Assembly: GCA_001662655.1 (NCBI GenBank)
Contig: KV460252.1
Strand: one strand, 5' to 3'
DNA from: Pseudogymnoascus verrucosus
Taxonomy: Eukaryota
DNA: 20,000 nt
Shown here: positions 627-20,000 of the stretch, one piece after another
Position numbering within the stretch: position 1 is the stretch's first letter
Layout: every line of letters begins with the position of its first letter
Program-made: the position numbers and the translations under genes
Notes under the pieces: model-generated
Told to the model about the DNA's origin: nothing
The model's database searches: none
What the model saw: only the letters and a program-made list of their open reading frames with translations

Positions 627-1773
627 CTAAAACCAGGAGTTCCAATCTGGAAAATGCTTCTCCAGGCGCTCTGGGTGGCTGTCTGGCCAGGTCTGTTCCA
701 GGGTCTGGCGAAGCTCATCATAAAGGACCCGATAGGCGGGAGGGTTGAAGTGGAGGCCTGTCAGGAGGTTGTTAGCGATGGGGATTGGGATGGTGGTGTT
801 GAGGTGGAGGTTCCGGCGGGATGACGGGATGAGCAGGAAGGACAAAATTATACACACCATCGGAGAGCAACTCAGCAAAGGCGGGATTCTTATCCGTTTT
901 CAAACTGCCGGGGAGCACGCCCTCGCCGCTCCACCCTGTCCGCGCCATCAACGCGCTCCACAGGTCACAAACGACAACTTCTCGCCCTTCTGCTCTCAGC
1001 GCCTCTCCGACGGCCTTTCCAGCTTCGGCGTACGCCCGGGCTTTCTCGGCACTGCGACCGCGGTCAACACGTCCGTCAGAGCGCGTCTCCTCGGCGAGCT
1101 GATACTCGTCCACGGGTGGGGTGGTGATAATGACAATGCGTGGGTTGTGCGCGAGAAGGAGGGGGTGGGAGAGAATGGCAAGGAGGTTCTCGCGGTAGGT
1201 TTGGAGGGGAACGTGTTGGTGGCTGACGCCGCCGAGGTGACAGGAGTCGTTGGCACCGAAGAAGAGGGTCTAGTTGGGGGTTAGTGGGGGTTTGAATGGA
1301 TGGCGGGAGAAATACCATGTAGTCGATTTTGGCGGTGGTGGGGGGAGGGAAGATGTATTCGATTATGGCAAGAGCTTGGTCGGTGTTGTATCCACTGGAG
1401 GGGTTGGCAACGGACGTGCTGGTGATTGGGAGACATACCTAAGCCCGCGGTCCACAACGTCTAGGCGGCGCATATAGTCTGTAGCATACAAGTCAGCTGG
1501 ACTGATGAAAGCAATGTCTACTCGAGCGTCCAAGTTTGCTCCCACGCGTGACTAGATTATGGATGCGTACCATGAGCCAGCTGAGCGCCCAGAGCAAATC
1601 CTTTGTTCTGGTCAAAGGCGCCCTGGGTGATGGAGTCACCAAAGAGGAGGAATTGCTTGTACGGGAGCTGGATATTATTAGCTTGTTAATTTAATTCTAT
1701 ATGAGAATGGCCTCGAACGAACCGTAGGAGCCGCAGCAAGAATTTCCTTTGCAGGAGCCTTGAAAGCGACCAT
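627..1773 (-). CDS. IAH1: SGNH/GDSL-family hydrolase, isoamyl-acetate-hydrolysing esterase (IAH1)-like; proposed exons complement(join(627..757,858..1269,1316..1394,1439..1478,1571..1667,1723..1773)), 269 aa
   Basis: Manual splicing with GT donors, YAG acceptors and branch-like sites (CTRAY in most introns) gives one 810-nt frame: MVAFKAPAKEILAAAPT-LPYKQFLLFGDSITQG...RGLSGYNT...TLFFGANDS...DGLHF. All four SGNH blocks are present. Start context ccaacATGG. Confidence 0.88.
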
Positions 1774-3848
1774 GTTGGCGATCTCAGATATGAGTGCGGG
1801 GAAAGGGATAGATTAGCCGTGGGTTTCTTCAACGATACCAGAGGGCGAGGGGGAATTATTGAAGAGGAGTAAGTGATAGGGTTCTGGGAATAGGAAGCAG
1901 AGATATATGTACAGCCAGTATGTTTGCTGGCCAGAAGTTTGAGAGAAATGTTTGTCAGAGAAGGTGTGCACACAGTATCACAGTTATCGGTCTGGAGGTT
2001 AGAAGGTAGAGGGGTTGATTGATACTCGCTCGCCATTTCGGACCAAGTTGGTCCGCCAAACGGAGGAATAGTGCATCCGACATCGCATTAATCCATCTTC
2101 ACATTCCCCATACGCACAAATTATACTATAAGAATTGTGATCTTATAAAGCATAAGATTACAATTCCCCATTTCCACAAAAAGGAGGCTTAGGAGGCTTT
2201 CCCACAAAGATCATCGCTGGATCCGCAATGTTTCTTCCATCTCGCGTGCGCCGACAGGGGTAAATTGTTCCATTGGCCTTCTTTTTTGGCTTTTTTGGAA
2301 GGGTCTCAGGTGGGCTGAGTAAGCGATATTAGCAAAGTCTGAAAAAAGGGCGAAAAGGGAAAAAGGGACGGTTTGATCGGCAGCGTGGACCCCTATACGG
2401 TACGCTGAAACCGACGCCTTGGGGCCTTTTAAGCCCTTCAAGATCCCTATAATTTCGGGCCACAGAAGGTAATTGGGGAAATGACTTGGCGCGTCTGTTT
2501 TGGGGACGGGATTGAACTAGATGCGGCTTCTAGAGCGACCAAATGGGTCTGCGACTGCGACGAAGCTCCATGTGGATATGCACTCCGGCGAGTTTGAAGC
2601 TGACTGACGGGTGAGTTGACAGGACAGCAGCTAGTCCTGCCGTCGAGCACAAAAGACAGAAGAGAGGACAGGACTGTGCTTTTTCTGCTCCGAGACAGCA
2701 AGGCGACGCACGGCGATAGGGTAGTTGTGGTAGTCCTGCTTGTTGTGTTAGTCCTGCTAGTTGAGCTGGTGCTGTATCGCACCTGTCATGGCATTGCAAA
2801 TCATCGCGACAGGCTCTAAGACCGGACACCCCGAATGTCTCACAAAAGGGGCATATATATGAATAGCTATGGAGACTGAGACTCTAGAAAATGACGCCGG
2901 CGGGACAAGCTCTGTATAACATCCGTATAACATCCGGTAGTAAATGGTAAACAAATAGATAAAATAGCTGAGCTAGGCCCAGAGCTGAACCCAGAGCCTA
3001 AACCAACACAGCAATTGTCATCAACATAGCATATATTACCATACCCAGGTCTTATGCACATGCAGCCTCACATTCCTCATCACAATCACATTCTTCTCCT
3101 CTCGTCCCCCAATCCCCCACGCTCATCTCCGGGGACGCACGTTCTTATCCCCTACATTCCTTTCCACATCGCCTTCGATTGTGGGCGTCGTTCCCCCCTG
3201 TGTGACGACCCTTACTACTACCCCCTCTATCCCGTCTCCAACGCGACCAGTCAACTCTCCCACCTCTTGAATCCCACGATCTCCATCACACCTTTCACTT
3301 CGCATTTTACCCGCCCTGCTGCACACAATCGCACGGCCACCAACAAATATACCACAGGACGAAACGCGACAAACACACCCGAATTAGCCAGCCCAACGAG
3401 GATCTGGCCAGCCTAACTAACCAAGGCGCCACTGTCAGCTGCTTGTCTGTGGTCATAAGCTCGGCATACTGCAGCGACCGGCGCCACGCTACTGCACTGC
3501 ACGCACAGTACCTGACAGAAACCCCTTCGACGACGATCTCAGCGCGCGGCCAACACACATCGCGAGAACGACGGCGACGAGCCATTGATCGAGACGAGTG
3601 TCTGTGATTGCGACCGCAGTGGCTACGATTTGGCCTGTCGACTGTTTACACGACTGTCACGAGCCAGCGCGGAACGAGCTACATATATAGCCGGCACAGG
3701 CTACGACCACAACAACACGATCTTTCGCCCATAAACACCACGAAATACTCGAACATTGAACAGCCAGCGCCGCCCACAACGCGGGCGGTTCGCCCAGCAC
3801 CTCCATCCTCACGCCCATCTCGGTAGCAGCCTGTAATCTCGACCCACG

Positions 3849-4880
3849 ATGACCGGCCCGGCCCCCTCCCCACAACCCATCGCCATAACACTGTTCGGCG
3901 CGGGCGGGAGCGGCAAGTCGTCGCTAACGCTATCACTCGTCCGCAATGCCTTCACCTCGACATACGACCCGACGATCGAAGACAGCTACAGCATAACACG
4001 GCGGGTGGACGGCGTGGAGTATGTGATTACCATCACGGACACGGCAGGGCAGGAGGAATACCGCGGGCTGTGGGCGCAGGAGGCGCTGCATGCGGATGGG
4101 TTCGTGCTGGTGTACGACATTACGAGCCGACGGAGTCTGGAGGCGTTGGGGTGGTTTGAGGCGCTGGTGCGGGTGGAAGGGGAGTGTCGGGAGGAGAGGG
4201 CAGAGACGGCGCTTCGGCGGCGGATCGAGGGCAGTGAGCCGCTGACAAGGAGTACAACGCGGGTGGGTCGGTCGAGGCGTGGCACCGGGACGACGATCGT
4301 GAGCGAGGCGTCGGAGTTGAAGCCCGTCAAGATTGTGGCGGGGAACAAGGTTGACCTGGCGAGTTCTCGGCGGGTGCCGGCTCGAGAGGGTCTGGAATGG
4401 GCGCGGCGGCATGGGTGCGGGTTCATGGAGACGAGCGCGCGGGAGCGAGTGAATGTTGAGGAGACGTTTGGACTGATTGTGCGAAGAGTGGTGGAGGCGC
4501 GGAGGGAGGAAGAGCAGCAACGACTGGAGGAGGAGTATGCGAGGGCTACTCAAGAGAGGGAGATCCGCGGGGATAACAGACGATATACAGTCGACTGGAC
4601 GGAAGAGAGTCTACGTTATCAGCGCGAGCAGGCGAGGCGACATGAGAAGGAGAAGATGGAGCAAATGCCGAGGAGGGATGCCGGGAGGAGCGGGCAGAGT
4701 CAAGAGCAGCGCGAGAAGAAGGTGCGGAGGAGGAAGTCGGAGGCAGGTGTTGGTGTGAGACATGCCGTGACGGCGCCGTTGAGCCCTCTTGAGATTGAAG
4801 GAAAGCGGATGAGGCTGCCAATACCACAAGGGGATATTGGGCCCCCGAAGAAGGGCTGGGCTTGGTTAAGGTGTTGGTGA
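3849..4880 (+). CDS. Ras-family small GTPase, atypical (internal insertion, long charged C-terminal tail, ends in CW)
   Basis: G1 GAGGSGKS, Ras effector loop YDPTIEDSY, G3 DTAGQEEY, G4 NKVD, G5 ETSA; intronless 343-aa ORF, GC-rich. Confidence 0.9.
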   Translation: MTGPAPSPQPIAITLFGAGGSGKSSLTLSLVRNAFTSTYDPTIEDSYSITRRVDGVEYVITITDTAGQEEYRGLWAQEALHADGFVLVYDITSRRSLEALGWFEALVRVEGECREERAETALRRRIEGSEPLTRSTTRVGRSRRGTGTTIVSEASELKPVKIVAGNKVDLASSRRVPAREGLEWARRHGCGFMETSARERVNVEETFGLIVRRVVEARREEEQQRLEEEYARATQEREIRGDNRRYTVDWTEESLRYQREQARRHEKEKMEQMPRRDAGRSGQSQEQREKKVRRRKSEAGVGVRHAVTAPLSPLEIEGKRMRLPIPQGDIGPPKKGWAWLRCW

Positions 4881-5289: not shown

Positions 5290-7467
5290 CTATCTACTCT
5301 TGATCATCCCAGCATTCGCACCGGTTCCCTTGCCACGCACAACTTTCATGTCTCCCTTTGTTTTTCCTGCAGCAAACTTTTCTCTCGCAAGCTGAATGGC
5401 AGACTTTCCATCTCCGCCTTTTCCTTTGACTGGTCCCTTCTTTGCAGGGAATGGCTTCTTCGCCTCTGCAGCGTCACCTTCATCTTCCTTCGGCGCAACA
5501 GCCACCGTCGTTCCCCCTTCTCCCTCCTTAACCTTTCCAATCCACTCTACCTTCCTCCTGACGAAGAGCTCCACCATCCAATTTCTTAATACTACTCTGC
5601 CAACCCAGTCTTCGCGTAGCTCAGCCATCGAGCTGGCGAGGATACTGCAGATGCGCTCCTTCAGCATCATGAGTCCCTGCGTGCCATCCCAGAACGCGTC
5701 GAGGGCATGCGATCCCGACTTTGACGTTGCGAGCGTGATGATCGACGCTGGGTCTGCGAGGAAGATGTTGACCAGCTTGCGGCGGAACGGTGCGTTGTTG
5801 GCACTGCCCGGGTTGCTGGGGGACGAGGGGTCCGTGGGGATCAGAGCCACCTGGAGGATGTGAGAGGTCGTCGTGGTGCAGGCGAGGTGGATGAGGGTGG
5901 GGAGGTCGAGGCACAGGAGGGAATCCTGGATCAGGGTGGCTGGGAGGCCTGGGATCGCAAGCATGGCTTGTGCGAGGAGGGAGCCGTGAAGGGTTGTGAG
6001 ATCTTGGCGGGGTTCGACTTTCTCATCGGTTTCGGCTTCTGGGGCGGTTTGGGGGGTTGTGTTGGTCATCTTGAGGAGGAGAGTCGCGGGGTCATTGCCG
6101 TATGCCTCTGCGATCGCGGTTGTGATTGCGGCAGTGCTTTTCTCGGCGCGTCGTGCGGATGTGCGCTCGAGGAGGGTCTTGAGGATGGTGGTTCGGGAGC
6201 GTTCGATAAGGTTGGGGATTTGCGGGGTGATGGAGGTGGCCGCTTCCTCGAGATCTTCACGAGAAACGCGCTCCAGGACTTTGATGACGACGTAGGTGGC
6301 AATCTCGTTGCGAGCCAATGCGCCGATGCGGTCTTTGAAGGTGGAGCGGTAGATTTGCTTGAACAGTTTTCCTGGAGCGTATGTGACGAGCGTTTCCAGA
6401 AGGCGGGATCCGATGGACTCGTAGATGAGGCCACTGACGAATGCTGCGGACTTGGAGCCCTCCGTTTCAATGTTATCGGGAAGAAGTTTTCTCAGGATGG
6501 AGCCGGACGCTTCTGGGGCGAGATCTTTTGTCTTTGTCGGGCGCGTGAGCTCCAATTCGAGGAGGAGTTGAAGAGCGGGGTTGGCAGTTTGGTGGCAAGA
6601 CAGAACCGGGATAGAGGTCTCGTCAAGGATTTCAGAAGTGTCGGAGATGAACTTGTTGACTGCATCTTGGAAGGAGGATGGGACGGCGCGCGCTTCCAGG
6701 CTGAGCTCTTCGGCGGACGACTTGAAGCCGGGGGTCGTGATGTTTTCCTTCTTTCTGCTTTGGAGGAGGGTTTTTGTAGAAGATTTCGCGAGTGGTTTTC
6801 CAGAGAGAACGACGAGGAGGACGCGAAGGGCGTGCGACGCGAATCGGTCGTTGAGGAGGAACCCAATTTGTCCTTCGAGTTCGTTCAGGGTGTAGAGGAA
6901 GGAGTTCTCCATCGACACGTAGACTTCGTCGGTTGGCGCAGGCTCATCTTCGGTGAGTTCTTGGGTGACGATAGGCGCAGAATGGATGAAGAGCGTCTCG
7001 CAGCAATGACTGGCGAATCGATGCTGTATGAGGTGCAGGAACTGTCCACTGAACTTTTGGAACAGCGTCTTCTTTTGTGTAGGCGTGCTCAGCAGGATGA
7101 GCCTCTCCATCAGCCGCGAACATGACTGGCTGTTCGCAATTTTCAGTTCCTTGCCCTCTGCCTCCTTGAAGACATTGGCGAGGAACAGCGACCGGTCTTC
7201 GTCGGACGGGAAGTCGTTCAGCTCGAGCAATTCGTCTGCGCGTCGGAAGTATTCTTGTTCTTCCTCGGCGAGTAGGCCGTAGAAGGGTCGTCCATCCGCT
7301 TCTTCGGTGAATGGTGGTGGGACGAAGGTGTCGGTGGTGTCCCCCACGAAGGATATGCCGCCAACATCGAGAGCGGGCCTCTTGCCCACGGGTTCTTCAT
7401 TCGCATTCGCCTCTCTCTTGCGCTTGCCCTCGCCGCGGCGACCACGTTGTTTGTTTTCTTTCGGCAT
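5290..7467 (-). CDS. NOP9: Nucleolar protein 9 (Pumilio-like repeat 18S rRNA maturation factor), 725 aa from ATG 7467
   Basis: MPKENKQRGRR N-terminus, FYGLLAEEEQEYF, KIANSQSCSRLMERLI, HRFASHCCETLF and a K/G-rich C-terminus, recognised as fungal Nop9. The track start at 7560 is a GTG; the first ATG is at 7467. Confidence 0.9.
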   Translation of the reverse strand: MPKENKQRGRRGEGKRKREANANEEPVGKRPALDVGGISFVGDTTDTFVPPPFTEEADGRPFYGLLAEEEQEYFRRADELLELNDFPSDEDRSLFLANVFKEAEGKELKIANSQSCSRLMERLILLSTPTQKKTLFQKFSGQFLHLIQHRFASHCCETLFIHSAPIVTQELTEDEPAPTDEVYVSMENSFLYTLNELEGQIGFLLNDRFASHALRVLLVVLSGKPLAKSSTKTLLQSRKKENITTPGFKSSAEELSLEARAVPSSFQDAVNKFISDTSEILDETSIPVLSCHQTANPALQLLLELELTRPTKTKDLAPEASGSILRKLLPDNIETEGSKSAAFVSGLIYESIGSRLLETLVTYAPGKLFKQIYRSTFKDRIGALARNEIATYVVIKVLERVSREDLEEAATSITPQIPNLIERSRTTILKTLLERTSARRAEKSTAAITTAIAEAYGNDPATLLLKMTNTTPQTAPEAETDEKVEPRQDLTTLHGSLLAQAMLAIPGLPATLIQDSLLCLDLPTLIHLACTTTTSHILQVALIPTDPSSPSNPGSANNAPFRRKLVNIFLADPASIITLATSKSGSHALDAFWDGTQGLMMLKERICSILASSMAELREDWVGRVVLRNWMVELFVRRKVEWIGKVKEGEGGTTVAVAPKEDEGDAAEAKKPFPAKKGPVKGKGGDGKSAIQLAREKFAAGKTKGDMKVVRGKGTGANAGMIKSR

Positions 7468-7893
7468 CGTTGGTGGGAATCGTGGTTTGCAGAGGTTGAT
7501 TGCACTTATCTTGCGATTGGAACTTTTCTGCCGGGCGGTGGGGGGAGGGATTACGATCACGTGGTAGGCAATAGTTTGTGTGTGATTCTGGCCTTAGGAA
7601 TTAGCCTTAAGAATTAGGCATTTACATAGTAAGACTTAGTAATTAGATAGTTCTATACAAAGGGGGCTGGCATAACCCTAACCGTTATAAGATGTTCATA
7701 ACCTATCCTACTCCTATATAGGCTTCAACCCTTCCTTAAATCTAAGAATAGATATTTTCCCTGTTGAGTGTCCTAATACGATAGTTCCGTTCCAGACTGC
7801 CATTTCTTCCGGTCGATATTCACGAGGAAGCCAGAGAATCTTCTCCTTCCCTTCTATTACCCAATCATCTAACACAAATAAACCTGGCTCCAC

Positions 7894-9210
7894 CTTACTA
7901 TCATGTAAGAAGGCTTCTGGCGTGAGAAATTTCGAATGGCCCTTGAGCGTCTCCAGCACTGTGCCCGTGACGGCGTCCCAGAGCCGTGTTTTATCACCTG
8001 ACCTAGCCGCCACCCGCTTGCCGTCCGGCGAGAAGGCAACTGACGAGACTGTCTCTGAATACCACTCGAGTGTCTGCAGTGGTGCGCCTGTCAGGCAGTC
8101 CCAGATCCGTACCGTATTATCCTGTGACCCAGATGCCACGTGCTTGCCGTCCGGCGAGAAGACCACCGATGTAACCGAGCTCAAATGGCCCTCGAGCGTC
8201 TGCAGTGCTGTGCCCGTCACAGTGTTCCAGAGGTGTACCATGTCACCTGACCCAAACACCACCCCCTTGCCGTCTGGCGAGAAGGCCACTGACGCGACAG
8301 AACGTGAACGGTACGGGCCCTCGAGCGGCGGGAGCGCCGTGCCTGTCACAACGTCCCAGAGCCGTACTGTGTAATCACCTGACCCAGACGCCACACGCTT
8401 GCCGTCTAGCGAGAAGGCCACTGACGAGATCTTCCTTGAATGGCCCTCGAGTATCTGCAGTACTGCACCTGTCATGGCGTCCCAAAGCCATACTGTTAGA
8501 TCATGTGACCCAGAAGCTAGGCGCTTACTGTCCGGTGAGAAGGCTAATGATGTAATTGGACCCCAATGGCCCTTAAGTGTCTGTAGTGCCTCGCCTGTCA
8601 TAGCGTCCCAGAGCTGTACTGATTGACCATCTGACCCAGACGCCCACCGCTTGCCGTCTAGCGCGAAGGCCACAGGCGTGAGAAAGCTTTGGCCCTCAAT
8701 CGTCTGTAGCACTGCGCCCGTCTCAGCGTCCCAGAGCTGTACCGTTTGATCATGTGACCCAGATGCTATACACTTGCTGTCTGGCGAGAAGGCTACTGAT
8801 GTGATAAATTTCGAATGGCCCTCAAGTGTCTGCAGTACTGCACCTGTCTCAGCGTCCCAGAGCCGTACTGTTAGATCATGTGACCCAGATGCTATACGCT
8901 TGCCGTCTGGCGAGAAGGCTACTGACTCGACTAAACTCGAATGGTCCTCGAGCTTCTGTAGCGCTACACCTGTCATAGCGTCCCAGAGCTGTATTGAGCC
9001 ATTAAGTGACCCAGACACTATGCGCTTGCTGTCTGGGGAGAAATCCACTGACGTGACCGGGCTGGAACCCTCGAGCACCTGTAGCGCCGCGCCAGTCACG
9101 GCGTCCCAGAGCCGTACCGTTTTATCATGCGACCCAGACGCCATGTGCTTGCCATCTCGCGAGAAGGCCACAGACTCGACTGAGTCCGAATGGCCCTCGA
9201 GCGTCTGCAG
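7894..9210 (-). repeat. WD40 tandem array, about 126-bp units, 10 full plus 1 degenerate repeat
   Basis: Repeated LQTLEGHSxxVxSVAFSPDGKxxASGSxDxTVRLWDAxTG units with visible nucleotide similarity (gcgtcccagagc, ggcgagaaggc). Confidence 0.92.
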
Positions 9211-11113
9211 CGCAGCGTTCCAATTTTCTTGCGCTCTCGTCTTCAATTGGATCCAAGGTGGGATAAATTTCTCAAATTGCCTCCGAACAATGCTTTTCTT
9301 CGGGGCGAAAACAAGCGCCGAACAGTATAGCTGTAGGGGTGCCTTTTCAATCACCAATCGGTTATACAAGGCGAATCGCATTGCATCATAGATAAATGCG
9401 TGTAAATCGGGGCTTTCATTAACCTATGACATGTTAATTAGAGTCTTGTAAGTAATAGATATATAGATTACCAGAACGTAAGCCTCTAGGGACAATATTG
9501 CCTGAATCCCTTCTGACGTCTTGCCCATCCACCCGAGTGCCTCGAGCCAGTGCAGTAGATGATCCTGTAGAAACCGGTGAGCTTCTCTGCCACTATGAAC
9601 CTGAGAATCACCCCTTTGTATATGCTGGACCCAGTAAAGACATGCATATTGAACTTCAGGTGGAAGGCATTCCTCAATCCAACTGCTCTTAACCTGGCTA
9701 GCTTGGCTACCAGGAGTATGCATTTTGCAAATGTCCTTCTTAAGTGTCTGGGACATTAGCTTTATGCAGCCAGCAGCTAATATCTGGTGCGCCTCCTTTT
9801 CATTCACCTAAAACTCCCTACATCGATCTTTGCTAAGGAGGAAGTCGCGAAATGAAGGATGGTGTAGGCAGAGCGGGCGAGTCGGCTCCTTTGGAATATT
9901 AAGGATCGCATAAAGGTCCTCAAATGTATTGTCGATATCTTCTTTTGGAATGTGTAATAGCTTGCTTAATGACAAGGTAGAAAGAGGTGAGAGCAACACT
10001 ACTATACTTCCAAGAATATGCTTTAACATATCGCATACCTCTTCTTTCTCTTCGTCTGAATATTCTGAGGAGATCGAGTTCTTAAGGACAGCAAGATAGA
10101 TCTCGTTGAGGTGTTTCTCTAGTGCGGTAATAGCGCTGCTACTGACCTTGAGAATTGTATCTAGTCTCTTGCGTGCGAATCGCCTCCCTTGATGGATAAA
10201 CTGACATGCTGTTGCTGCCCAAATGAAGAGGCCACAAGCGTGTAGAACTAGCTGTCTCAGAATCGCCTCGCCTGGCCAGTCTGCGCCGAGAGTCCACTGC
10301 TGCCTGATTGTCTCTAGATTGTATTCTAGGAATAGAGAGATATCATGGTTAATAGTCTCTAGTGGTATATCATGGAGTATGAAGTCCTGGTGCTTAGCTT
10401 GTGGGATACGGTATATGCTGTGTCGGATTGGAATTTCGGGTCTACTAGTTAGAAAGACTTGAAGTCGTACCGTCGTTAGTGACCGAGCCTCGGCTAAGAG
10501 CCCCAGAATGTTCTGGACGTTGATATCACCCTCACACTCGTCGAGCGCATCAACAACGAGGACGTACGGCTGGTGAGATTTCTCTAGCCTTGATAGGGGG
10601 CCGAGAACAAGCTGGCGCCACTGGTCTAAGAGGGACAGATTCGCAATATCACTCCGCTTGGTAACAGCCTCACAGATATACTGTCGAAGAGACGGCACAT
10701 TGAAAGCGAGCTGCACTGCTAGACTTGTAAAGAACTTGCCGGCATGGCTCACATCTCCGTCACCCTTTGAGAAGAAGAAGCTGGCTCCAAGACGCTTCTG
10801 CTGATTATACCTGTGGGCGACGGTACGGGTGATTGTTGACTTTCCCGTTCCAGCTAGGCCATTCAACCAGAAGATGCATCGCTCACCTTGTCCATCTTTT
10901 CCATCAGCCCAGCCATATATGTCTTTTAAAAGGTCGACGCGGGTGTTAGGGAGGCAGGCAGGTTCGTGTTGGCGGACGTAGGAATTGAACGGCGCGTCTG
11001 TTGCAAACGGGAGTAGGCTGAGGGGATCTTCTCGGGCTATCGCGTGCGTGTCAGTTTTGTGGTGCTCCTCTTTTTAATATGTATAATGTTAAAGAGCGTT
11101 AAGTTAACTTACT

Positions 11114-11182
11114 AATATGGTATATATCCCCGAGATGGGCTCTTGCGCCATCGTTGATATTAATGTCTCGGTATTGCTTGTT
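11114..11182 (-). other. R0 amyloid-nucleating motif (HET-s-related amyloid motif) of the NLR: NKQYRDININDGARAHLGDIYHI
   Basis: Aligns by eye with both pseudo-repeats of the neighbouring HET-S PFD (HQYSNIRIN--GQALAGDAY; HKYNGVEVKEGGKALIGNKY). Confidence 0.82.
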
Positions 11183-11212
11183 AGACCCACGTGGCTGCTC
11201 GGGATCCGACAT

Positions 11213-11617
11213 AGTGTACTTTGTAAGGTAATACAGTCAAGCTAGCTGCCGCCCGCAAAAGTGGAGAAGGAGCTGTTAAGAGTCTACTAAGTACAAATCC
11301 CAGTTAATGAATGGTGAAGTGCAATCAATACGTTATACCTCTCCTTCCTCTTGTAAGTCATAAGTCGCAAGTTAGGTGGGTGCTGTCAGGTTACGTTATG
11401 GTTATTAGTTGTCAGGTTACGTTATGATTATTAGTTATCTCGTCGTTGATGGTGAGGGGACTACCCCATCACTGCCCTCCCTGTAAGTGTAGGGTTGCAT
11501 ATTGGCCTAGTGTTGTGAGGCTGTGACTAAAGTAAGTCCTAGTGGGGTCCCACTCCATCCCATCAACTCAACCTTCACTCTGACGGCTCTTGTCTTGCAT
11601 TATCATTTCTCTTGTCA
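11213..11617. promoter_or_regulatory. Putative bidirectional promoter between the NLR and the het-S homologue (405 bp)
   Basis: Head-to-head ATGs at 11212 (-) and 11618 (+). Confidence 0.6.
11384..11435. repeat. 26-bp tandem duplication TGTCAGGTTACGTTATG(G/A)TTATTAGT x2
   Basis: Read directly from sequence; one mismatch. Confidence 0.9.
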
Positions 11618-12457
11618 ATGGCGGAGCCGTTCGGCATTGTCTCCGGTGCCATTAGAATTGCATCTGCCTTTACTGCTTGTGTTGACTGCTTCGAGTACGT
11701 CCAGTTTGGCCGTCACTTCGGTCGGGATTTCCAGACCAGCCAGCTTACTCTCAACTGCCTGAGACTCCGTCTTACACAATGGGGCGAGTCTGTCAATATC
11801 TACGACGATCCTAAACTAGGCAGGCAGGATGCTGCTGCGACCGACTTTGAACTTGCAAAGGATGCGCTGGTCTAAATTCTTGTGCTGTTTGCTGACACCG
11901 AGTCCATCTCTAAAAAGTATAAGTCGACTGCGAAGGCTGGCGAGGATCTCTTAGCGTATTCAATAGGCGATATGGATCCGAAGATGGTCGTGCTGGATAC
12001 TAAGATGAAAGGCTTGGCTACACAGCGTCAAAAGAAGGGTCGATTTTTGAAGCTTACTAGCTAGTCTCTCTATCACAGGTCTACCCTGAAAGATCTCCTT
12101 AGACAGATAGTCTCCCTTATCGACGAGATTGAGAAACTATTCCCTGCACCTCAGTCCCAAACCACACTTGTCTAGCAAGAAGCAGCAGAGATTGGTGACA
12201 AGCAGTCTCTTGAGCTGATCGAGGATGCAGCTACGGGTGTCGATAACCTCCTTCAAAAAACGGCATGGGAAGTAATTGCAGGTCACCAGTACTCGAATAT
12301 TAGGATCAATGGACAGGCCCTTGCTGGGGATGCATATAGTAGTGGCTAGAGTAGGGGTGCGATTAGGGCCTCTCACAAGTATAATGGCGTCGAGGTGAAG
12401 GAGGGTGGAAAGGCTCTAATTGGGAACAAGTATGGTGGAAAGGACTTCTAGGATTAA
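11618..12457 (+). pseudogene. het-S: HET-S homologue (HeLo pore-forming domain plus HET-s-like prion-forming domain), 279 codons, 5 premature stops
   Basis: N-terminus MAEPFGIVSGAIRIASAFTACVDCFEYVQFGRHFGRDF closely resembles HET-S. One frame continues through TAA 11873, TAG 12062, TAG 12173, TAG 12347 and TAG 12449 to ...KALIGNKYGGKDF*D-stop, matching the HET-s C-terminal GN.YGGK.FWD tail. Confidence 0.92.
12281..12454 (+). other. Two-repeat prion-forming domain (R1 GHQYSNIRINGQALAGDAY, loop, R2 SHKYNGVEVKEGGKALIGNKY, GGKDF(W)D tail)
   Basis: Manual translation in the het-S frame. Confidence 0.85.
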
Positions 12458-12830
12458 GCACATCTGTCACGCTGCTGACCATCTCTCACTCTTGCGTTGT
12501 GTTTAGAACATGAGAATATTTTGTATTTCTAAACCTAGTTGCATATTTATAACTGTCGAATTCTACACCACTACGATACCGAATTCAGATACAAACTTGA
12601 TTAAACCTAGAGTTATAATTGCTAATCCTAGGATCCCGCACGAGTTCTCACTAGCGCGCTTCTACTACTAACGCGACTGTTTCCGTCTGTTATCTTAGTC
12701 GCCTCTAGACGCACTGTCCCCCCTATCCTACTTTTCTGTCGCTTAACCCTCTGTCTACTATATACTTTTCCTTAGGAACCTACCTATAAAATAGTTTATA
12801 GATACTATAAGAAGATAGGATGAGCATCTA

Positions 12831-12873
12831 ACGTACTTGCATAGCGAACGGACCACCATAGCGAGTGGACCAC
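12831..12873 (+). repeat. Putative left TIR with two internal 17-bp direct repeats (CATAGCGAACGGACCAC / CATAGCGAGTGGACCAC)
   Basis: TA|ACGT start and internal direct repeats are typical of Fot1-like TIRs; the partner TIR is not in the window. Confidence 0.7.
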
Positions 12874-12929
12874 TTTTCCTTACATCTACTACTTCCTACC
12901 ATTAACGCGACTTTTCTCAACGAACTATA

Positions 12930-13247
12930 ATGGAATCTTCTTCAATTGAATGTCGTATAATCCTTACCCTTAAAGCACTTGAAAACGACCAAAATCTTAC
13001 TAGCCGAGCTACAGCAAAGATCTATAAAGTCCCTCATACAACACTTTTACGACGACGCGATGGTAAGAAGTCACGACGCGATATCTCTACCAACTCTAGA
13101 AAATTAACTAATCTTGAGGAATCTGTGATTCTTCGACGTATACTTGACCTAGACTCACGAGGATTTCAGCCCTAGCAAAGCTATATTCAAGAAATGGCTA
13201 ATTGTCTTCGTACAGACCGTAACGCGTCACGCGTTAGACCACGATAG
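12930..13247 (+). pseudogene. Pogo/Fot1 transposase N-terminal fragment (HTH-psq plus start of CENP-B-type HTH)
   Basis: SRATAKIYKVPHTTLLRRRDG...SRKLTNLEESVILRRILDLDSRGFQP*QSYIQEMANCL...RVRPR*, ending exactly at the LTR TG. Confidence 0.85.
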
Positions 13248-13727
13248 TGTTACGGCTAGGGTTTTCGGCGGCACTATCGCCGACACCCCGAGTATAGTAG
13301 TAATGAGGATGTTAGCGATTTGACCGCCCTTAAGGCAGGGTCAGTTATCAGGCACCTAATGAGTGTCCGGCACCTAGGTTTACAGGTACCGGAAGACAGT
13401 CAGGCACCTAGGAATTAGGAGGTACCGGAGTTGCAGGTACCGGAAGCAGCATAGGTACTAGAATAGCACTTACGTGATGGAACCGTGAGAACTGCTAGAA
13501 CTCTTACAGTTCCTACAGTTCCTCACAGTCCCCTTTAGCACGACGCCTCTATATAAGTAGATAGTTAGTTCTTAGATAGGAGCTTCGTGCTCAACTCAAT
13601 ATAGTATTTATTATATACTATAACGTGTTTTACGAAAGCCTTTGTGTCTAATCCCCTGCCTCCTCTATTAAGTAAACCAACGCAACGAAACCTCTATAAG
13701 TCTTATAGTTTAAGACCTAGCGTTACA
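13248..13727 (+). repeat. 5' LTR (480 bp), TGTTACG...CGTTACA
   Basis: The first 255 bp are colinear with 19746-20000; TATATAA at 13550-13556. The 3' end is inferred from the imperfect terminal inverted repeat and the adjacent PBS. Confidence 0.85.
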
Positions 13728-13729
13728 CT

Positions 13730-13737
13730 TTGAGCAC
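13730..13737 (+). promoter_or_regulatory. Primer-binding site TTGAGCAC, complementary to GTGCTCAA at 13587-13594 in the LTR (probable self-priming)
   Basis: Exact 8-nt complementarity; lies 2 nt after the inferred LTR end. Confidence 0.65.
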
Positions 13738-13773
13738 CACTTCTACGAGGTACTAGCTCATACACAAAGCAAC

Positions 13774-15660
13774 ATAGCTAGAAACGATTCCACCTCTAAC
13801 GTAGGGACGAAAGGGAAGGCAGCAACGGAGCCTGTCCCTTCGCCTACTACTACGCCTGCGCCTAGAGGGCCTCACCCCTTAGACAAACTTAAGATTGCAT
13901 TCCTAGACACCTTTAACGGGGACTGCAAGAAGCTTAAGAGCTTCCTCATCTAGACGGAGTTGTAGATGGCCATTAACGCCAAACACTTTGCCTTTAAAGT
14001 GCAACAGGTCTTGTAGGCCGTAGCCCTCTTAAGGGGTGCTGCCTTAGACTAGATTGCTAACTACCTAACTAACTACATAAGCTACTATGCAGCTAACGGA
14101 AGGGTCACCACAACGGCTAATTAGGGAACTAAGGATATCTTCATCACTTAGGTAGGTTTCGTTAAACAGCTTAAGGCGAACTTTAGAGATGTTGATGAGA
14201 GAAGGAACGTAGTGCGAGCCATTTAGGCCCTTAGGCAGAAAGGGTCTATAGTTACGTATACTGCTAAGTTTTAGTAGCATGCCCCTCTTACCCATTAGGG
14301 AGACGAGGCTATATACAACTAATATTACAAGGGGTTAAAGGATCATGTAAAAGATGAGATTTCTCAATCTAACAAACTAGATGACCTTAAGGAACTCATT
14401 AAGATGGCATAGAAAATCGACAATCGTTGCTATAAACGCCAACTTAAAAGACGAGGAGGAACATCTAGCCACTAATGGACTTAGAAAAGAAAGACACTAA
14501 AGAGCTATTAGCCCTAACCTATAGAGCTTAACGCTACGTTCAAGCCTAGCAGAAGACACTACAACCCTAACAAGGAGCAACAGCTTAAGGAACGGCTCTG
14601 TTTTAATTACAACAAACCTAGCTATATAGCCCGAGACTATAAGCAACCTAAGAAGGGGAACAGTAGACGTAAGTTTAGCAGACAACTTAATGCTACTTAG
14701 AAGGGACAACTAAACGCCACGTTTATAGACAAACCTAATTAGGGGATTAATAGTGTTAGCACCCTAGAAGGACAGAGCTCTAACGACGAGGATCTTAATG
14801 AGTTCGATGCATTACTTAAAGTTAAGAACGAACGCCTAAACAAGGGATTAACGGAATCCTAGAAACTCTAGCTAAAGGAGTTTGAAGAAGACGTAAAGGA
14901 GATCGCATTTAAGGAAAATCTACTAGGAGTAGTTAACATCTATAGACAGGCCATGCTCTAAAAGGGAACTCTACGAGCGATTCCTATACTACTACCCCTA
15001 ACGGGATGGATGGGTACTCAACAAGACTAGGAAGTCGTAGTTTGCGCTATAAGGTGTCGCCCTAGGTACCTACAAGGGAGGGAGCCCCGAGGAGCGAACT
15101 ACACCTCTAAAGAAGCCACTATGTAGTTGAAATACAAGCTTACAGAATATAACACGCAAGATGAACAGTAGGAAGACACTTAGGGCCCTAAACCCTAGGA
15201 ACTATAAGTAGACTAAGCTGCTATAGACTACAAACCTACTAATAAAGACGTAGAAAGGTTACGTATAACTATAGAGAAATCCAAGCTTATAGGCAAGATA
15301 AAGGAGGAACAGGAATTAACAAAGTTAGATGCATTAAGGATTGATTACCCCTAGCACCTATATATATTCTAGGAACACTATAAGTACGATGACTATAAGA
15401 GTCACCTATAGAAAAAGACCTAGTATCGACTATTTCTAAAAATCGCACCTTAGGTCTACTTTATAGATATAGACCAAATTCATGCCCTTAGACGAAGTTA
15501 GTCTAAAGGAGAACTACCGTTAAAAAAACAACAATAGGTATATGAGAAATACCTACACCTGCTAAATAAAGCAGAAGGATGGGGAGGACAATCTTCCTAA
15601 GGACCGCCTATAGAGGATGATGAACATCACTATTACTCCTTAGACGAGTTAAAAAACTAG
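13774..15660 (+). pseudogene. gag: gag (RIP-degraded, about 628 codons) with zinc-knuckle relic at 14599-14640
   Basis: Probable ATG>ATA start; LKIAFLDTFNGDCKKLKSFL capsid-type motif; CFNYNKPSYIARDY (CCHC relic); terminal AAA AAC TAG in the same frame. Confidence 0.82.
15651..15657 (+). promoter_or_regulatory. Putative -1 ribosomal frameshift heptamer A_AAA_AAC immediately before the gag stop
   Basis: pol motifs lie in the -1 frame relative to gag. Confidence 0.75.
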
Positions 15661-18600
15661 GAGTCCTCGACAGTAGGCCACTAGCAAGTGACAAAGAGAG
15701 GCCTAGTACAAAGCAGCTATGCGCCATAGGAGGCAGCATGCAGCTATATATAGTTACTAAGATACAATAGCAACACCTCTAAGCTATGATTAACTTAGGA
15801 GCAATAGGCAACTTTATAACAAAGAAAGTAGCAGACACTTAAGGTTTTAAGACGCAATTAAAAACCGATCCTTACCTACTAATAGTCGTGGATAGAGAGC
15901 CTATCTCAACTAATAAAGGGATAGTAACCTACAAGACAGTCCTATTAGAAATGGTTATACTACGCAGACATAAGGAAACGATCCAATTTAATATCGTATA
16001 TATAGACAACTATGCATGTATCCTTAGTGTGCTGTAGCTTAAGAAACACAACCCTTAGATCGACTAGTAGAATGAGAAAGTTGTAATGAGCTAGTGCGCG
16101 TGTAAACAACGAACGGACACGCTATAACGGGAGGAACCCTCCTAGGGCTAATGTAAGGTATATACAACCTCTATAGAGCCTAGTGACCTAGCCTAGGCAC
16201 CCTTACTAACGAATATACTAGTAGAGTATAAGGAATACAAGTAGCTATTCTAGGAAGGCCCTAAGAACGAGGCGCTTCCTAAGCACCAACTATAGGATCA
16301 TGTAATACCCTTAGAAGAAGGAAAGAGTCTACTGTTTAGACTAATATACCAGATGTTAGCAGATGAGTTAAAACTACTAAAAGAATATATTGACGATAAC
16401 CTTAAGAAAGGATTTATTAGACCGTCTAAATCTCCTATAGGAAGCCTAATGTTATAGGTTCCTAAGAAGGATAGAAGCAAACGACCATACGTGGACTATT
16501 GAGCGTTAAACAACATAACGATAAAGGATCGATACGCCTTACTGTTAATTAATAAGTTACACAATAGATTCTAAGGAGCTAAGATCTTTACTAAGCTAGA
16601 TCTACATAGCGCGTACAACCTAATCTAGATAGCTAACAACGAGGAGTAGAAAACAGCATTCTACACCTGCTATGGCCTATTTAAATATTAAGTCATGCCC
16701 TTTAGGTTAACTAACGCCCCTACATCTATGTAACGCTTAATAAATAACGCTTTACACAAATATCTAGACATATTCACCATCGTTTACTTAGACGATATAC
16801 TAGTATACTTAGCAAACAAGGACAAACATACTTAGTATGTTAAGCTTGTCCTCTAGAAGCTAAAGGAATACAACCTACTGTTAAAGCTAGAGAAATGTAA
16901 GTTCTATAAAAACTAAGTCGAATTCTTAGGCTACATTATCGGAACGCACAGCATTAAGATGGACTAAGCAAAGGTCATAGCAGTGTTAGAATGGCTAACA
17001 CCAACTATAGTTAAGGAAGTACAAGCCTTCTTAGGCTTCGCTAACTTCTACCGTTAGTTTATTATAGGATATTCTAAGGTAGCTTAACTACTTACAGAGC
17101 TTACTAAGAAGGATCTCGTGTTCAAATAGATAGACAAAGCAGAGGCTACCTTCTAGGAACTTAAGACGAAGTTCACAGAGGCACCTATCCTTACAACATT
17201 TAACCCTACAAAGAAGATCGTCCTTAAGACAGACTCTTCTAACTTTGCGATTAGAGCATGTCTAAACCAACTAGATGAGAACGGTAAGTTTAAACCAATC
17301 GCATACTACTCTAGGAAACTGTCACCTATAGAGCTTAACTATAACATCTATAACAAGGAGCTACTAGCTATTGTCGTTGCCTTTAAGCAGTGGCGCGTAT
17401 ATCTTAAGGGATCCACCTACACTATGTAAGTGTAGACAGATCATAAGAACCTTATATACTTCACTACAACCAAGGTTTTAAACTATAGACAAGTCTGCTA
17501 GGCAGAAACCCTTATAGCCTACAACTTCACAATAACCTATTATAAGGGCTCTAAGAACGCAAGAGTAGACGCTCTTAGTAGACAGACCGACTACGTTAGC
17601 CTAAAGGAAGAAAGACCTAGAGCAATATTAAAGAAAATAGACGTAGGAATATAGTACAATGAGTTACTAGCAACGATCTCTATCGTTAAAGACATAGAAC
17701 TCGAGGCAAGACTTAAGAAATCTTATATAACAGACGAATGCGTAAAGAGAGTCTTAACTAAGGTCGAAGGCGACTTCGCTATAGACGAACAAGGATTAAT
17801 CCGTTATAAAGGATTAGTATATGTCCTAAGTTAAATAAGACGCCTACTAGTGTAAGAACAACACTCGTTACTAGCACACAGTCATTAGGGAGTAACACAA
17901 ACCTTCAAACGAATCACGAGACACTACTACTTCCTAGGTATAAGGAAGTAGGTAGAAACGGTAGTAAGAGAGTGCGACATTTGTAGCAAATTAAAATCTA
18001 ATAGGCACTTGCCTTATAGACAGCTCAAGTCGACACTAGTACTAAAAGGAGCGTGGAAATTAATAGCCCTAGACTTCATCGTTAAGCTACTACCCTCTAA
18101 AGACCTGTTAATAGGAGTAGAATACAACTCTATCCTCGTTATAACGGAAAGACTCACGAAGTATAGGAAATTCGTACTATATCTAGAAGCCAGCAACGCT
18201 AAGGCGCTTGCGTATACCTTCATTTAAGTCATATTAGCTAATTATAGGATGCTAGAAGAAATTATCTTAGACAGAGACAAGCTCTTCACTTTGAAATTCT
18301 AGAAATCGTTAATGGCTCTACTAGGAACAAATCACAAGCTATCAACAGCTTTCTACCCCTAAACAGACAGCTAAATAGAAAGATTAAATCAAACCCTTAA
18401 ACAGTACCTACGAAGTTATGTTAATTATTAACAGGATAATTAGGTTTAGATTTTACCCATTGCACAGTTCGCATATAACAGCGCGATAGCGGAAGTAACG
18501 AAAGTCTCACCGTTCTTTGCTAATTACAGCTACTAGCTAGAAGCATATAGGCAACTAAGACCGGACGAAGCACGAGCTAAACAAGCCCTAATTGTAGTAG

Positions 18601-19100
18601 AACAACTAAAATCGTTCTACGAACAACTTGCAACGGACATCTAATTCTTAAATGAACGATCTACTACATACGCAAACAGGAAGCGCAGTATAGAACCTGC
18701 CTTTAAGGAGGGGGATAAAGTATACCTACTCTAGAAACACATCAAAACGAAGCGACTAAGTACAAAGCTAGACTTTAAGAAATTAGGACCATTTAAGATA
18801 TTAAACAAAGTCAGCTTAGTTAATTACAGACTACAGCTACCTAAGAACTCTAAACTCCATCTAGTATTTCATGTCTTATTATTAGAACTAGTAAGAGGGG
18901 ATGCCCTAATTACAACAGATACCGAACTTCAACCTAAAAATGAGATCATTAAATATAAGGTTAAGGCGATCCTAGACAAAAGGTTAGTAGGACGCTAAGA
19001 AGAGTTTTTAATAAAATGGAAAGGTTACGAACCTACAGACAACTTATAGGAGTTAAGAGGGAACCTTAGCTGCCTAGAGTTGTTAGCAGAGTTCTGCCGT
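15657..19100 (+). pseudogene. pol: pol (protease, reverse transcriptase, RNase H, integrase, chromodomain), RIP-degraded; 3' end approximate
   Basis: AMINLGAIGNFI (DSGA relic, 15783), YLDD (16785-16796) and TDSSNFAI (17229) are in one frame. Further on are H..H/CDIC, LDFIVKL, DRDKLFT, ERLN, LGPF and FLIKWKGYEPTDNL*E (chromodomain). Confidence 0.93.
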
Positions 19101-19632
19101 TAACACTCTAATTCAGCTAGTACGACGGCAATAAGGCTGTATAATCAAAGGTTAAGAAATCTAGTTTAGGGTTAGGGGCCTTAGGATTTGTAGTAGGCGG
19201 AGAGGTAGGTAGGCGAGCTACTCTTACTAGGGCCACGCGTTTACTTACTTTAGCTTCTTCTAGCTCATTGAGTGTCCGAAGCCCATAGTGCAACATCTCC
19301 CCCCCACGACTCTTTAATAGACGTTGTTACTTAGAGACGCGGAGCTGCTTTGCCATGGCCTCTTAGGCCTAGGAAATGGCGAGCTCTATCTCTTGCAACA
19401 AGCGTTCCTCTTCACGCTAGAGGCGTTCCTAATCTCTAAGAGAAGGACTAGCAGCGTCACACTTAACGTTTGATTTTATGCATTTAGCGCATTGTCTAGA
19501 ATTGCTAGACATAACGCATTTCGTTTCACAACGTTTACATTAAGTACACAGGGACATTTCGACCCTAGTGGCAGCAACATAGAGAGTAAGGAGATGACGT
19601 TCTTTGATTTTAGTATGTTTAGAAGAAGACAT
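19066..19632 (-). pseudogene. Antisense accessory ORF of the retrotransposon: Zn(II)2Cys6-like cluster plus coiled coil, about 188 codons, RIP-stopped; 3' end tentative
   Basis: From ATG 19632: ...EMSLCT*CKRCETKCVMSSNSRQCAKCIKSNVKCDAASPSLRD*ERL*REEERLLQEIELAIS*A*EAMAKQLRVSK*QRLLKSRGGEMLHYGLRTLNELEEAK...; Cys spacing C-x2-C-x6-C-x8-C-x2-C-x6-C. Confidence 0.75.
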
Positions 19633-19731
19633 GGTCGCAGCCTAACCTGCCCTATAGATAGTAGTAGGCATCACCCTACTTAAGTAGTTAGCAACTTTCT
19701 TAGTTAGCAAGTCCTAGGGACTAGGCCTCTT

Positions 19732-19740
19732 AGGGAGGGA
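19732..19740 (+). other. Polypurine tract AGGGAGGGA
   Basis: Purine run ending 5 nt before the 3' LTR TG. Confidence 0.7.
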
Positions 19741-19745
19741 CCTAG

Positions 19746-20000
19746 TGTTACAGCTAGGGTTTTCGGCAGCACTATCGCTAACACCCCGAGTATAGTAGTA
19801 ATGAGGATGTTAGCAATTTAACCGCCCTTAAGGCAGGGTTAGTTATTAGGCACCTAATGAGTGTCTGGCACCTAGGTTTACAGGTACCGGAAGATAGTTA
19901 GGCACCTAGGAATTAGGAGGTACCAGAGTTGCAGGTACTAGAAGCAGCACAGGTACCAGAATAGCACTCACGTGATGGAACCGTGAGAACTGCTAGAACT
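19746..20000 (+). repeat. 3' LTR (first 255 bp)
   Basis: Ungapped match to 13248-13502 with 17 differences, all transitions. Confidence 0.95.

Follow-up and report, generated by a model that had tools for sequence, protein, structure and literature searches.

A decayed HRAM3-type NLR/HeLo amyloid-signalling gene pair in Pseudogymnoascus verrucosus, most likely killed by repeat-induced point mutation

The closest described counterparts of the locus studied here are NWD2/HET-S of Podospora anserina, whose motifs belong to group HRAM1 of the HET-s-related amyloid motifs (HRAMs), and the HRAM3 pairs of Pseudogymnoascus itself. NWD2 is a NACHT-WD40 nucleotide-binding and oligomerisation domain-like receptor (NLR) with a single motif of ~21 amino acids, r0, at its extreme N-terminus, and its divergent neighbour, 0.6 kb away, encodes a HeLo effector with two C-terminal pseudo-repeats, r1 and r2, ending in ...GN.YGGK.FWD (PMC4344463). 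We analysed a window of 20,000 nt from P. verrucosus (assembly GCA_001662655.1, contig KV460252.1), to which all coordinates below refer. It holds what is very probably a pseudogenised HRAM3-type NLR/HeLo amyloid-signalling pair of this genus (Leotiomycetes), most likely killed by repeat-induced point mutation (RIP).

The two genes lie head to head, with the NACHT-WD40 NLR gene on the minus strand (11212-7714, three exons) and the HeLo gene on the plus strand (11618-12457). The NLR gene was modelled with the help of its ortholog P0122 from Pseudogymnoascus sp. 24MN13 (95% identity). The parts of the pair are as follows.

11113..11212, minus strand: NLR exon 1, 33 codons plus 1 base, carrying r0 (SNKQYRDININDGARAHLGDI); ATG at 11212, donor GTAAGT at 11112
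11037..11112, minus strand: NLR intron 1, 76 nt, GTAAGT...ATAG, with the junction as in homolog gene models
9472..11036, minus strand: NLR exon 2, NPHP3_N/NACHT NTPase (Pfam), then a helical region; one premature TAG
9424..9471, minus strand: NLR intron 2, 48 nt, GTAATC...ATAG, whose removal gives LEAYVL-VNESPDLH as in P0122
7714..9423, minus strand: NLR exon 3, ten WD40 units and a conserved C-terminal tail (PF00400, 126-nt repeat families)
11213..11617, no strand: divergent promoter region common to both genes, 405 bp
11618..12457, plus strand: HeLo effector pseudogene, 280 codons, HeLo domain in codons 6-201
HeLo codons 221-239, plus strand: r1 (AGHQYSNIRINGQALAGDA)
HeLo codons 251-271, plus strand: r2 (ASHKYNGVEVKEGGKALIGNK)

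The start codons at 11212 and 11618 leave a spacer of exactly 405 bp. The HeLo profile PF14479, searched with X in place of stops, matched residues 6-201 over profile positions 1-205 of 205 (135.5 bits, cut-off 23.2, E 2.8e-39), and within 9808-11073 we found NPHP3_N at 111.9 bits and NACHT at 30.1 bits (cut-off 26.7). The original prediction, made from the letters of the window alone, had described a head-to-head NACHT-WD40/HeLo arrangement 405 bp apart and had proposed the HeLo and NACHT profiles as a check; start codons and Pfam domains bear it out, as does the comparison with NWD2/HET-S for its claim of a matched divergent pair of that kind. All three motif peptides that it quoted are present in the sequence. 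Within the shared promoter, 26 nt are duplicated in tandem (11385-11410 and 11411-11436, one mismatch between the copies), and two related genomes, X2 and X3, both lack 26 nt at 11402, inside this duplication.

In an intact pair, ligand binding by the WD40 array would lead the NACHT receptor to oligomerise, and the stacked N-terminal r0 motifs would form a beta-solenoid seed. This seed would act as a template for the prion-forming region (r1/r2) of the adjacent HeLo protein, whose HeLo domain would then insert its N-terminal helix into the membrane and bring about cell death. Receptor oligomerisation, r0 seeding and templating, and membrane attack by HeLo are all taken from the NWD2/HET-S work (PMC4344463).

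The P. verrucosus pair shares with NWD2/HET-S the divergent orientation, the NACHT-WD40 receptor with one N-terminal r0 and the effector with two C-terminal pseudo-repeats. It differs in having H rather than N at motif position 3, an r1 two residues shorter and an r1-r2 loop of 11 rather than 15 residues; it is also unmatched by the Pfam family HET-s_218-289, and both of its genes are inactivated. The HRAM3 pairs of the Pseudogymnoascus 'pannorum' VKM strains belong to the same family, and the intact HeLo protein P0002 of Pseudogymnoascus sp. VKM F-3775 is 88% identical to the window copy. Unlike these entries, which have intact open reading frames, the window copy is interrupted by six premature stops, and position 3 of its r0 is K. 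Loss of such genes is known from Podospora, where every het-s strain carries nwd2 as a pseudogene (PMC4344463) and where NLRs of amyloid pairs were lost through a transposon-associated event or C>T changes, with a transposon at or beside the locus, as here (PMC4344463, PMC13449251). In Podospora het-s, however, only nwd2 is broken, by insertion of a long terminal repeat (LTR), and the effector survives as the het-s prion allele, whereas in the window point mutations have struck the effector more heavily than the NLR, and there is no hint of an exapted prion allele.

The inactivating changes are six in-frame stops. For the HeLo gene, the ancestral residues were read from the stop columns of an alignment with 15 homologs.

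11873, plus strand, HeLo codon 86: TAA; Q in homologs
12062, plus strand, HeLo codon 149: TAG; W in homologs
12173, plus strand, HeLo codon 186: TAG; Q in homologs, K or R in some
12347, plus strand, HeLo codon 244: TAG; W in homologs
12449, plus strand, HeLo codon 278: TAG; W in homologs, F or Y in a few
9810-9808, minus strand, NLR codon 443: TAG; W in P0122, P0127, P0157, P0125 and P0133

The NLR stop falls in the motif FWV[ND]EK of the homologs, and each of the six stops results from one C>T or G>A substitution creating TpA. Neither frame is thus open from start to stop, with five interruptions in the HeLo frame and one in the NLR, and the pair cannot be called complete, as the original prediction had it. 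Judged from these frames, both genes are pseudogenes, so the pair is predicted to be unable to signal as encoded. The neighbouring genes (NOP9-like, Ras-family GTPase and GDSL lipase) are open, and the stops are therefore no sign of a poor assembly.

Contigs of X2 and X3 allow some of these changes to be dated. Over ~1.87 kb they differ from the window by 47 and 53 letters, respectively (~97% identity). Both have TGG at 9809 (C on the plus strand in the relatives at this window position), TGG at 12063 and CAG at 12173. Sense codons at these three sites mean that at least three of the stops arose after the split from those relatives. Such close relatives, with sense codons at three of the six stops, make the locus a clean, datable case of birth-and-death turnover of a fungal cell-death module.

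The direction of change was followed in NLR codons 1-640, polarised against P0122 with six further NLRs as an outgroup. Among 26 amino-acid differences, 15 were derived in the window and 4 in the sister, and 7 were undecided. As many as 13 of the 15 window-derived changes are G:C>A:T (the others are one A>G and one G>C), and 7 of these 13 stand in a CpA/TpG context. Conserved residues of the NLR are hit by G126D, R312Q, P339L and R423C. In the HeLo protein, 31 residues depart from the 70% consensus of ten homologs, namely through 13 G:C>A:T changes, 6 A:T>G:C changes, 9 transversions and 3 differences needing more than one change. Here 11 of the 13 G:C>A:T changes are in a CpA/TpG context, and G13R lies in the N-terminal hydrophobic helix. 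Comparison with X2 and X3, restricted to the best-supported 40 of 491 difference rows, gave 39 rows; in 33 of them the window has A/T where the relatives have G/C, in 4 it is the other way round, and 2 are transversions. Additionally, the ten WD40 units, compared with their own consensus, carry 77 G:C>A:T changes, 33 A:T>G:C changes and 45 transversions.

At this locus we thus observe a polarised excess of G:C>A:T changes that prefers CpA/TpG, as expected of RIP, and RIP is the most likely cause of the decay. One possible trigger is the presence of paralogous copies within this genome; contigs with paralogous HeLo and NACHT sequences, at 80-88% identity, are present in X1, the probable source sequencing run. 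The NLR's own WD40 repeats could also have acted as the trigger, with leakage into adjacent sequence, and so could leakage from an LTR retrotransposon, itself RIP-mutated, which lies 0.8 kb past the 3' end of the HeLo gene. From ~12.5 kb to the window end, G+C is 0.35-0.45, TpA/ApT 1.6-2.3 and (CpA+TpG)/(ApC+GpT) 0.53-0.74, and the 12.5-20 kb stretch is strongly RIP-like. All three routes have been described for Podospora NLRs, together with RIP-marked NWD pseudogenes and the leakiness of RIP (PMC13449251).

Several observations weigh against this explanation or against parts of it. In the bodies of the two genes TpA/ApT is 0.95-0.96, (CpA+TpG)/(ApC+GpT) is 1.13-1.20 and the composite index is negative; the corresponding ratios of the NOP9-like gene are 0.29 and 1.24. 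The usual cut-offs for RIP are a TpA/ApT above ~0.89 and a (CpA+TpG)/(ApC+GpT) below ~1.03. Against these values, both genes pass the former and miss the latter, and the 12.5-20 kb stretch passes both. The gene-body indices are thus intermediate and indicate light RIP at most. Six of the 13 G:C>A:T changes in the NLR lie outside a CpA context, three of them at CpG, so ordinary deamination could contribute. When all aligned contigs are counted, paralogs included, the bias is modest (for X2, 138 A>G and T>C against 103 C>T and G>A). The stops at 11873, 12348 and 12450 lie outside the best 40 of the 491 difference rows with X2/X3, and a literature search at title and abstract level found no paper describing RIP in Pseudogymnoascus. 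As to the identity of the pair, splicing of the NLR was deduced from homolog gene models, not from RNA, and signalling by an HRAM3 pair is inferred by homology with NWD2/HET-S. The r0 motif scores only 2.9 bits when a hidden Markov model (HMM) of r1/r2 is run on exon 1, a score reached by 28 of 2000 shuffles.

Part of these data would suit neutral erosion of a pseudogene freed from selection, through spontaneous or methylation-linked cytosine deamination, with no RIP and with the adjacent RIP-mutated transposon as a coincidence. The gene-body indices do fall short of the usual cut-offs, the CpA/TpG context is found in just 7 of 13 NLR transitions with 3 at CpG, and the WD units contain transversions and indels as well. 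We nevertheless consider this explanation unlikely. The changes are very strongly polarised (13 of the 15 that are derived in the NLR), 11 of the 13 HeLo changes are in the CpA/TpG context, and the changes accumulated within ~3% divergence from the relatives, next to repeats with a clear RIP signature and in a genome with paralogs at 80-88% identity. Even less probable is a functional pair, in which the stops would be sequencing or assembly errors, or a null allele in this strain, with intact alleles still segregating in the species as a presence/absence or het-like polymorphism. The sense codons of X2 and X3 at three of the six sites do indicate that the inactivation is recent, and null-allele polymorphism is common at Podospora NLR and het loci (PMC13449251). 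On the other hand, X1 has 0 differing letters over 9400-11830 and 11804-12858, although it may not be independent of the assembly, and the public model P0242 carries the same letters. Six stops with at least 21 further G:C>A:T missense changes are unlike random sequencing error, and the flanking NOP9-like, Ras-like and GDSL lipase genes are intact.

A conditional role of the stops, with sexual-stage A-to-I editing of UAG to UGG restoring the frames and the lethal pair kept silent in mycelium, is hardly credible. It would fit four of the six stops, which are TAG at an ancestral TGG (HeLo codons 149, 244 and 278 and NLR codon 443), the type of stop that restorative editing repairs in Fusarium graminearum (PMC10776026), and fungal editing prefers U at -1 (PMC11156358). 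Codon 86, however, is TAA, and edited UAA reads UGA, still a stop (PMC11156358), and codon 186 goes back to CAG. No genome-wide editing was detected in apothecia of the Leotiomycete Botrytis cinerea (PMC11156358), and the many missense changes at conserved residues suit damage rather than a switch. If editing did operate here, stage-specific editing would be extended to Leotiomycetes and to a regulated-cell-death module. Decay through RIP, the explanation that we prefer, adds little to the biology of these systems, as loss of NLRs by RIP or transposons is already documented in Podospora. It is worth stressing, though, that at this locus the effector, and not the receptor alone, has been destroyed.

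The class of the pair follows from its motifs. HRAMs in general form two C-terminal pseudo-repeats with hydrophobic residues at positions 5, 8, 10, 16 and 18, G at 19 and a preference for R/K at 15, and HRAM3 is marked by H at position 3 (PMC4518210; Daskalov, Dyrka & Saupe 2015, Sci Rep 5:12494). All three motifs of the window agree with the general pattern: r2 has Y5, V8, V10, K15, A16, I18 and G19; r1 has Y5, I8, I10, A16, A18 and G19, its position 15 being Q and its 2-residue gap agreeing with the published alignment; r0 has Y5, I8, I10, R15, A16, L18 and G19. H stands at position 3 in r1 (AGH) and r2 (ASH), and r0 has K where its relatives have N or H. Table 1 of PMC4518210 counts six HRAM3 proteins in P. 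pannorum, and the supplement gives the last 80 residues of P0002, with r1 AGHQYSNIGIKG--QALAGDA and r2 ASHKYDSVEVKEGGKALIGNK, as well as the r0 motifs of neighbouring NLRs. Judged by these residues, the window variant fits HRAM3, the link to the P0002 row running through Table 1, as the supplement rows were available without a group label. The original prediction had treated the motif as a variant distinct from HET-s itself and had not assigned its HRAM subfamily. The distinctness holds, with no match of PF11558 (HET-s_218-289) on codons 187-280 even at E<=10 (HMMER filters dropping most weak matches) and none of the 120 listed HeLo homologs (the best 120 of 308) carrying a PF11558 entry. The variant, however, is already published (PMC4518210, Table 1 and supplementary table 2); HRAM3 pairs of Pseudogymnoascus were catalogued in 2015, and the motif is not new.

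The likeness of r0 to r1 and r2, also claimed in the original prediction, stands in part. Exon 1 does carry r0, in the N-terminal position, while the likeness taken alone is weak, at the 2.9 bits given above. The HMM was built from 172 r1/r2 motifs, captured in 86 of the 120 HeLo homologs (34 were dropped). Run on 120 NLRs and exon 1, it gave 20 matches, the 11 best of which all fall within residues 3-33, and the assignment of r0 gains weight because the best matches sit at the NLR N-terminus. By eye, 13 of 21 positions of r0 match SGNQYRNIRINEGAKAQLGNI, an r0 given in the 2015 supplement.

For the NLR, exon 1 is 94% like the annotated N-terminus of P0122. Splicing of exon 1 to the NACHT exon, on which the original prediction depended, is supported at the level of prediction, as the donor GTAAGT at 11112, combined with the acceptor AG at 11037, reproduces the P0122 N-terminus (...GDIYHI-T-REDPLS...). 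Acceptor 11037 alone yields the P0122 junction YHI-T-REDPL, and it also agrees with YHI[SG]REDPL of P0127, P0157 and P0133, members of the paralog group of this NLR. An alternative acceptor at 11070, which would give a 43-nt intron, was ruled out by the P0122 junction, which needs 11037. The spliced gene has 1124 codons with one internal TAG and ends at a natural stop at 7714-7716, and its C-terminal tail matches P0127 and P0157. In keeping with NWD2-like receptors, it combines a NACHT domain, a WD40 array and one r0, at residues 10-30 before the NACHT domain; GLAGTGKST and VLVVDALDE, the Walker A and B motifs, are retained. PF00400 (WD40) matched in 8 stretches of 7714-9423. The WD40 units measure 41-44 amino acids and several are degenerate; in this eroded array, with units of 41 and 44 residues, GH/WD signatures have been lost. 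Near-identical WD40 repeats are retained in relatives such as P0127 and P0125.

The model of P0122 itself is only 798 amino acids long. Its tail, QAVGVWVRWSISTALGRYDRRGTTDT, is identical to an out-of-frame reading of the window's WD40 region (8573-8695), so the WD array of P0122 is also frameshifted or mis-modelled.

The HeLo frame terminates at TAA 12455. Its public counterpart is the 130-residue protein P0242 (P. verrucosus VE01_08371), which is identical at 130 of 130 residues to codons 1-84 and 103-148. The VE01_08371 model removes 18 codons holding the first stop as an 'intron' and terminates at the second stop; it is an annotation artefact that hides a pseudogene. No short HeLo fragments above 90% identity were found besides P0242. 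The 130-residue fragment should be flagged as a pseudogene along with the NLR.

The pair recurs in other genomes. At E<=0.001 we found 308 HeLo homologs, P0002 being the best, and most of the best 120 of them are 277-284 amino acids long. Consecutive HeLo/NLR locus tags occur in 6 other genomes (V502_01091/2, VE00_07427/8, O988_01801/2, M1813_001343/4, B7494_g7218/9 and MMC25_003188/9), and 5 of these 6 adjacent NLR models begin with an r0-like motif, e.g., GNQYRNIRINEGAKAQLGNIYHI.

Outside the window, paralogous Pseudogymnoascus NACHT-WD40 proteins (P0123, P0124, P0128 and P0134), 75-81% identical in the NACHT region, begin with a different short motif, FGDxNSGFQAGIVNGSVH. This start is presumably similar to the N-x-G-x-Q-x-G 'PP' amyloid motif, in which case one NLR backbone would carry several classes of amyloid motif in Pseudogymnoascus.

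The remaining features of the window lie on both sides of the pair.

772-1269, minus strand: GDSL lipase exon or fragment, intact
3837-4880, plus strand: Ras-family GTPase with a long charged tail, intact
5290-7470, minus strand: NOP9-like PUF protein, 726 amino acids, intact (PF22493, E 1.6e-168)
13245..20000, plus strand: RIP-degraded Ty3/Gypsy-type LTR retrotransposon, cut by the window end; outside the pair, as part of its context and a possible source of RIP

The three neighbours of housekeeping type have a G+C of 0.55-0.60 and a low TpA/ApT. The retrotransposon is bounded by direct LTR copies of 258 nt (13245-13502 and 19743-20000), 93% identical and 6498 nt apart, the second of which leaves the window. 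Between them we observed remnants of an RNase H (RT_RNaseH, 17157-17429) and an integrase SH3 domain (18735-18998), with shattered frames. An 89-residue open frame at 12906-13175 (KIYKVPHTTLLRRRDGK...) had no Pfam match at E<=0.01; by eye, we take it to be like the helix-turn-helix of a pogo/Fot1-type transposase.

In X2 and X3, the contig with the HeLo ortholog continues beyond the 3' flank (window 12641-12646) into letters matching window 7493-7527. In P. verrucosus this stretch is found on the left-hand side of the NLR, immediately upstream of the NOP9-like gene. To the right of the pair, we looked for another copy of 7400-7760 and detected none. The junction from 12646 to 7493 in these relatives has single-copy depths, with 30 letters shown, and it could mean that NLR/HeLo units are arranged in tandem or that the module has another breakpoint there.

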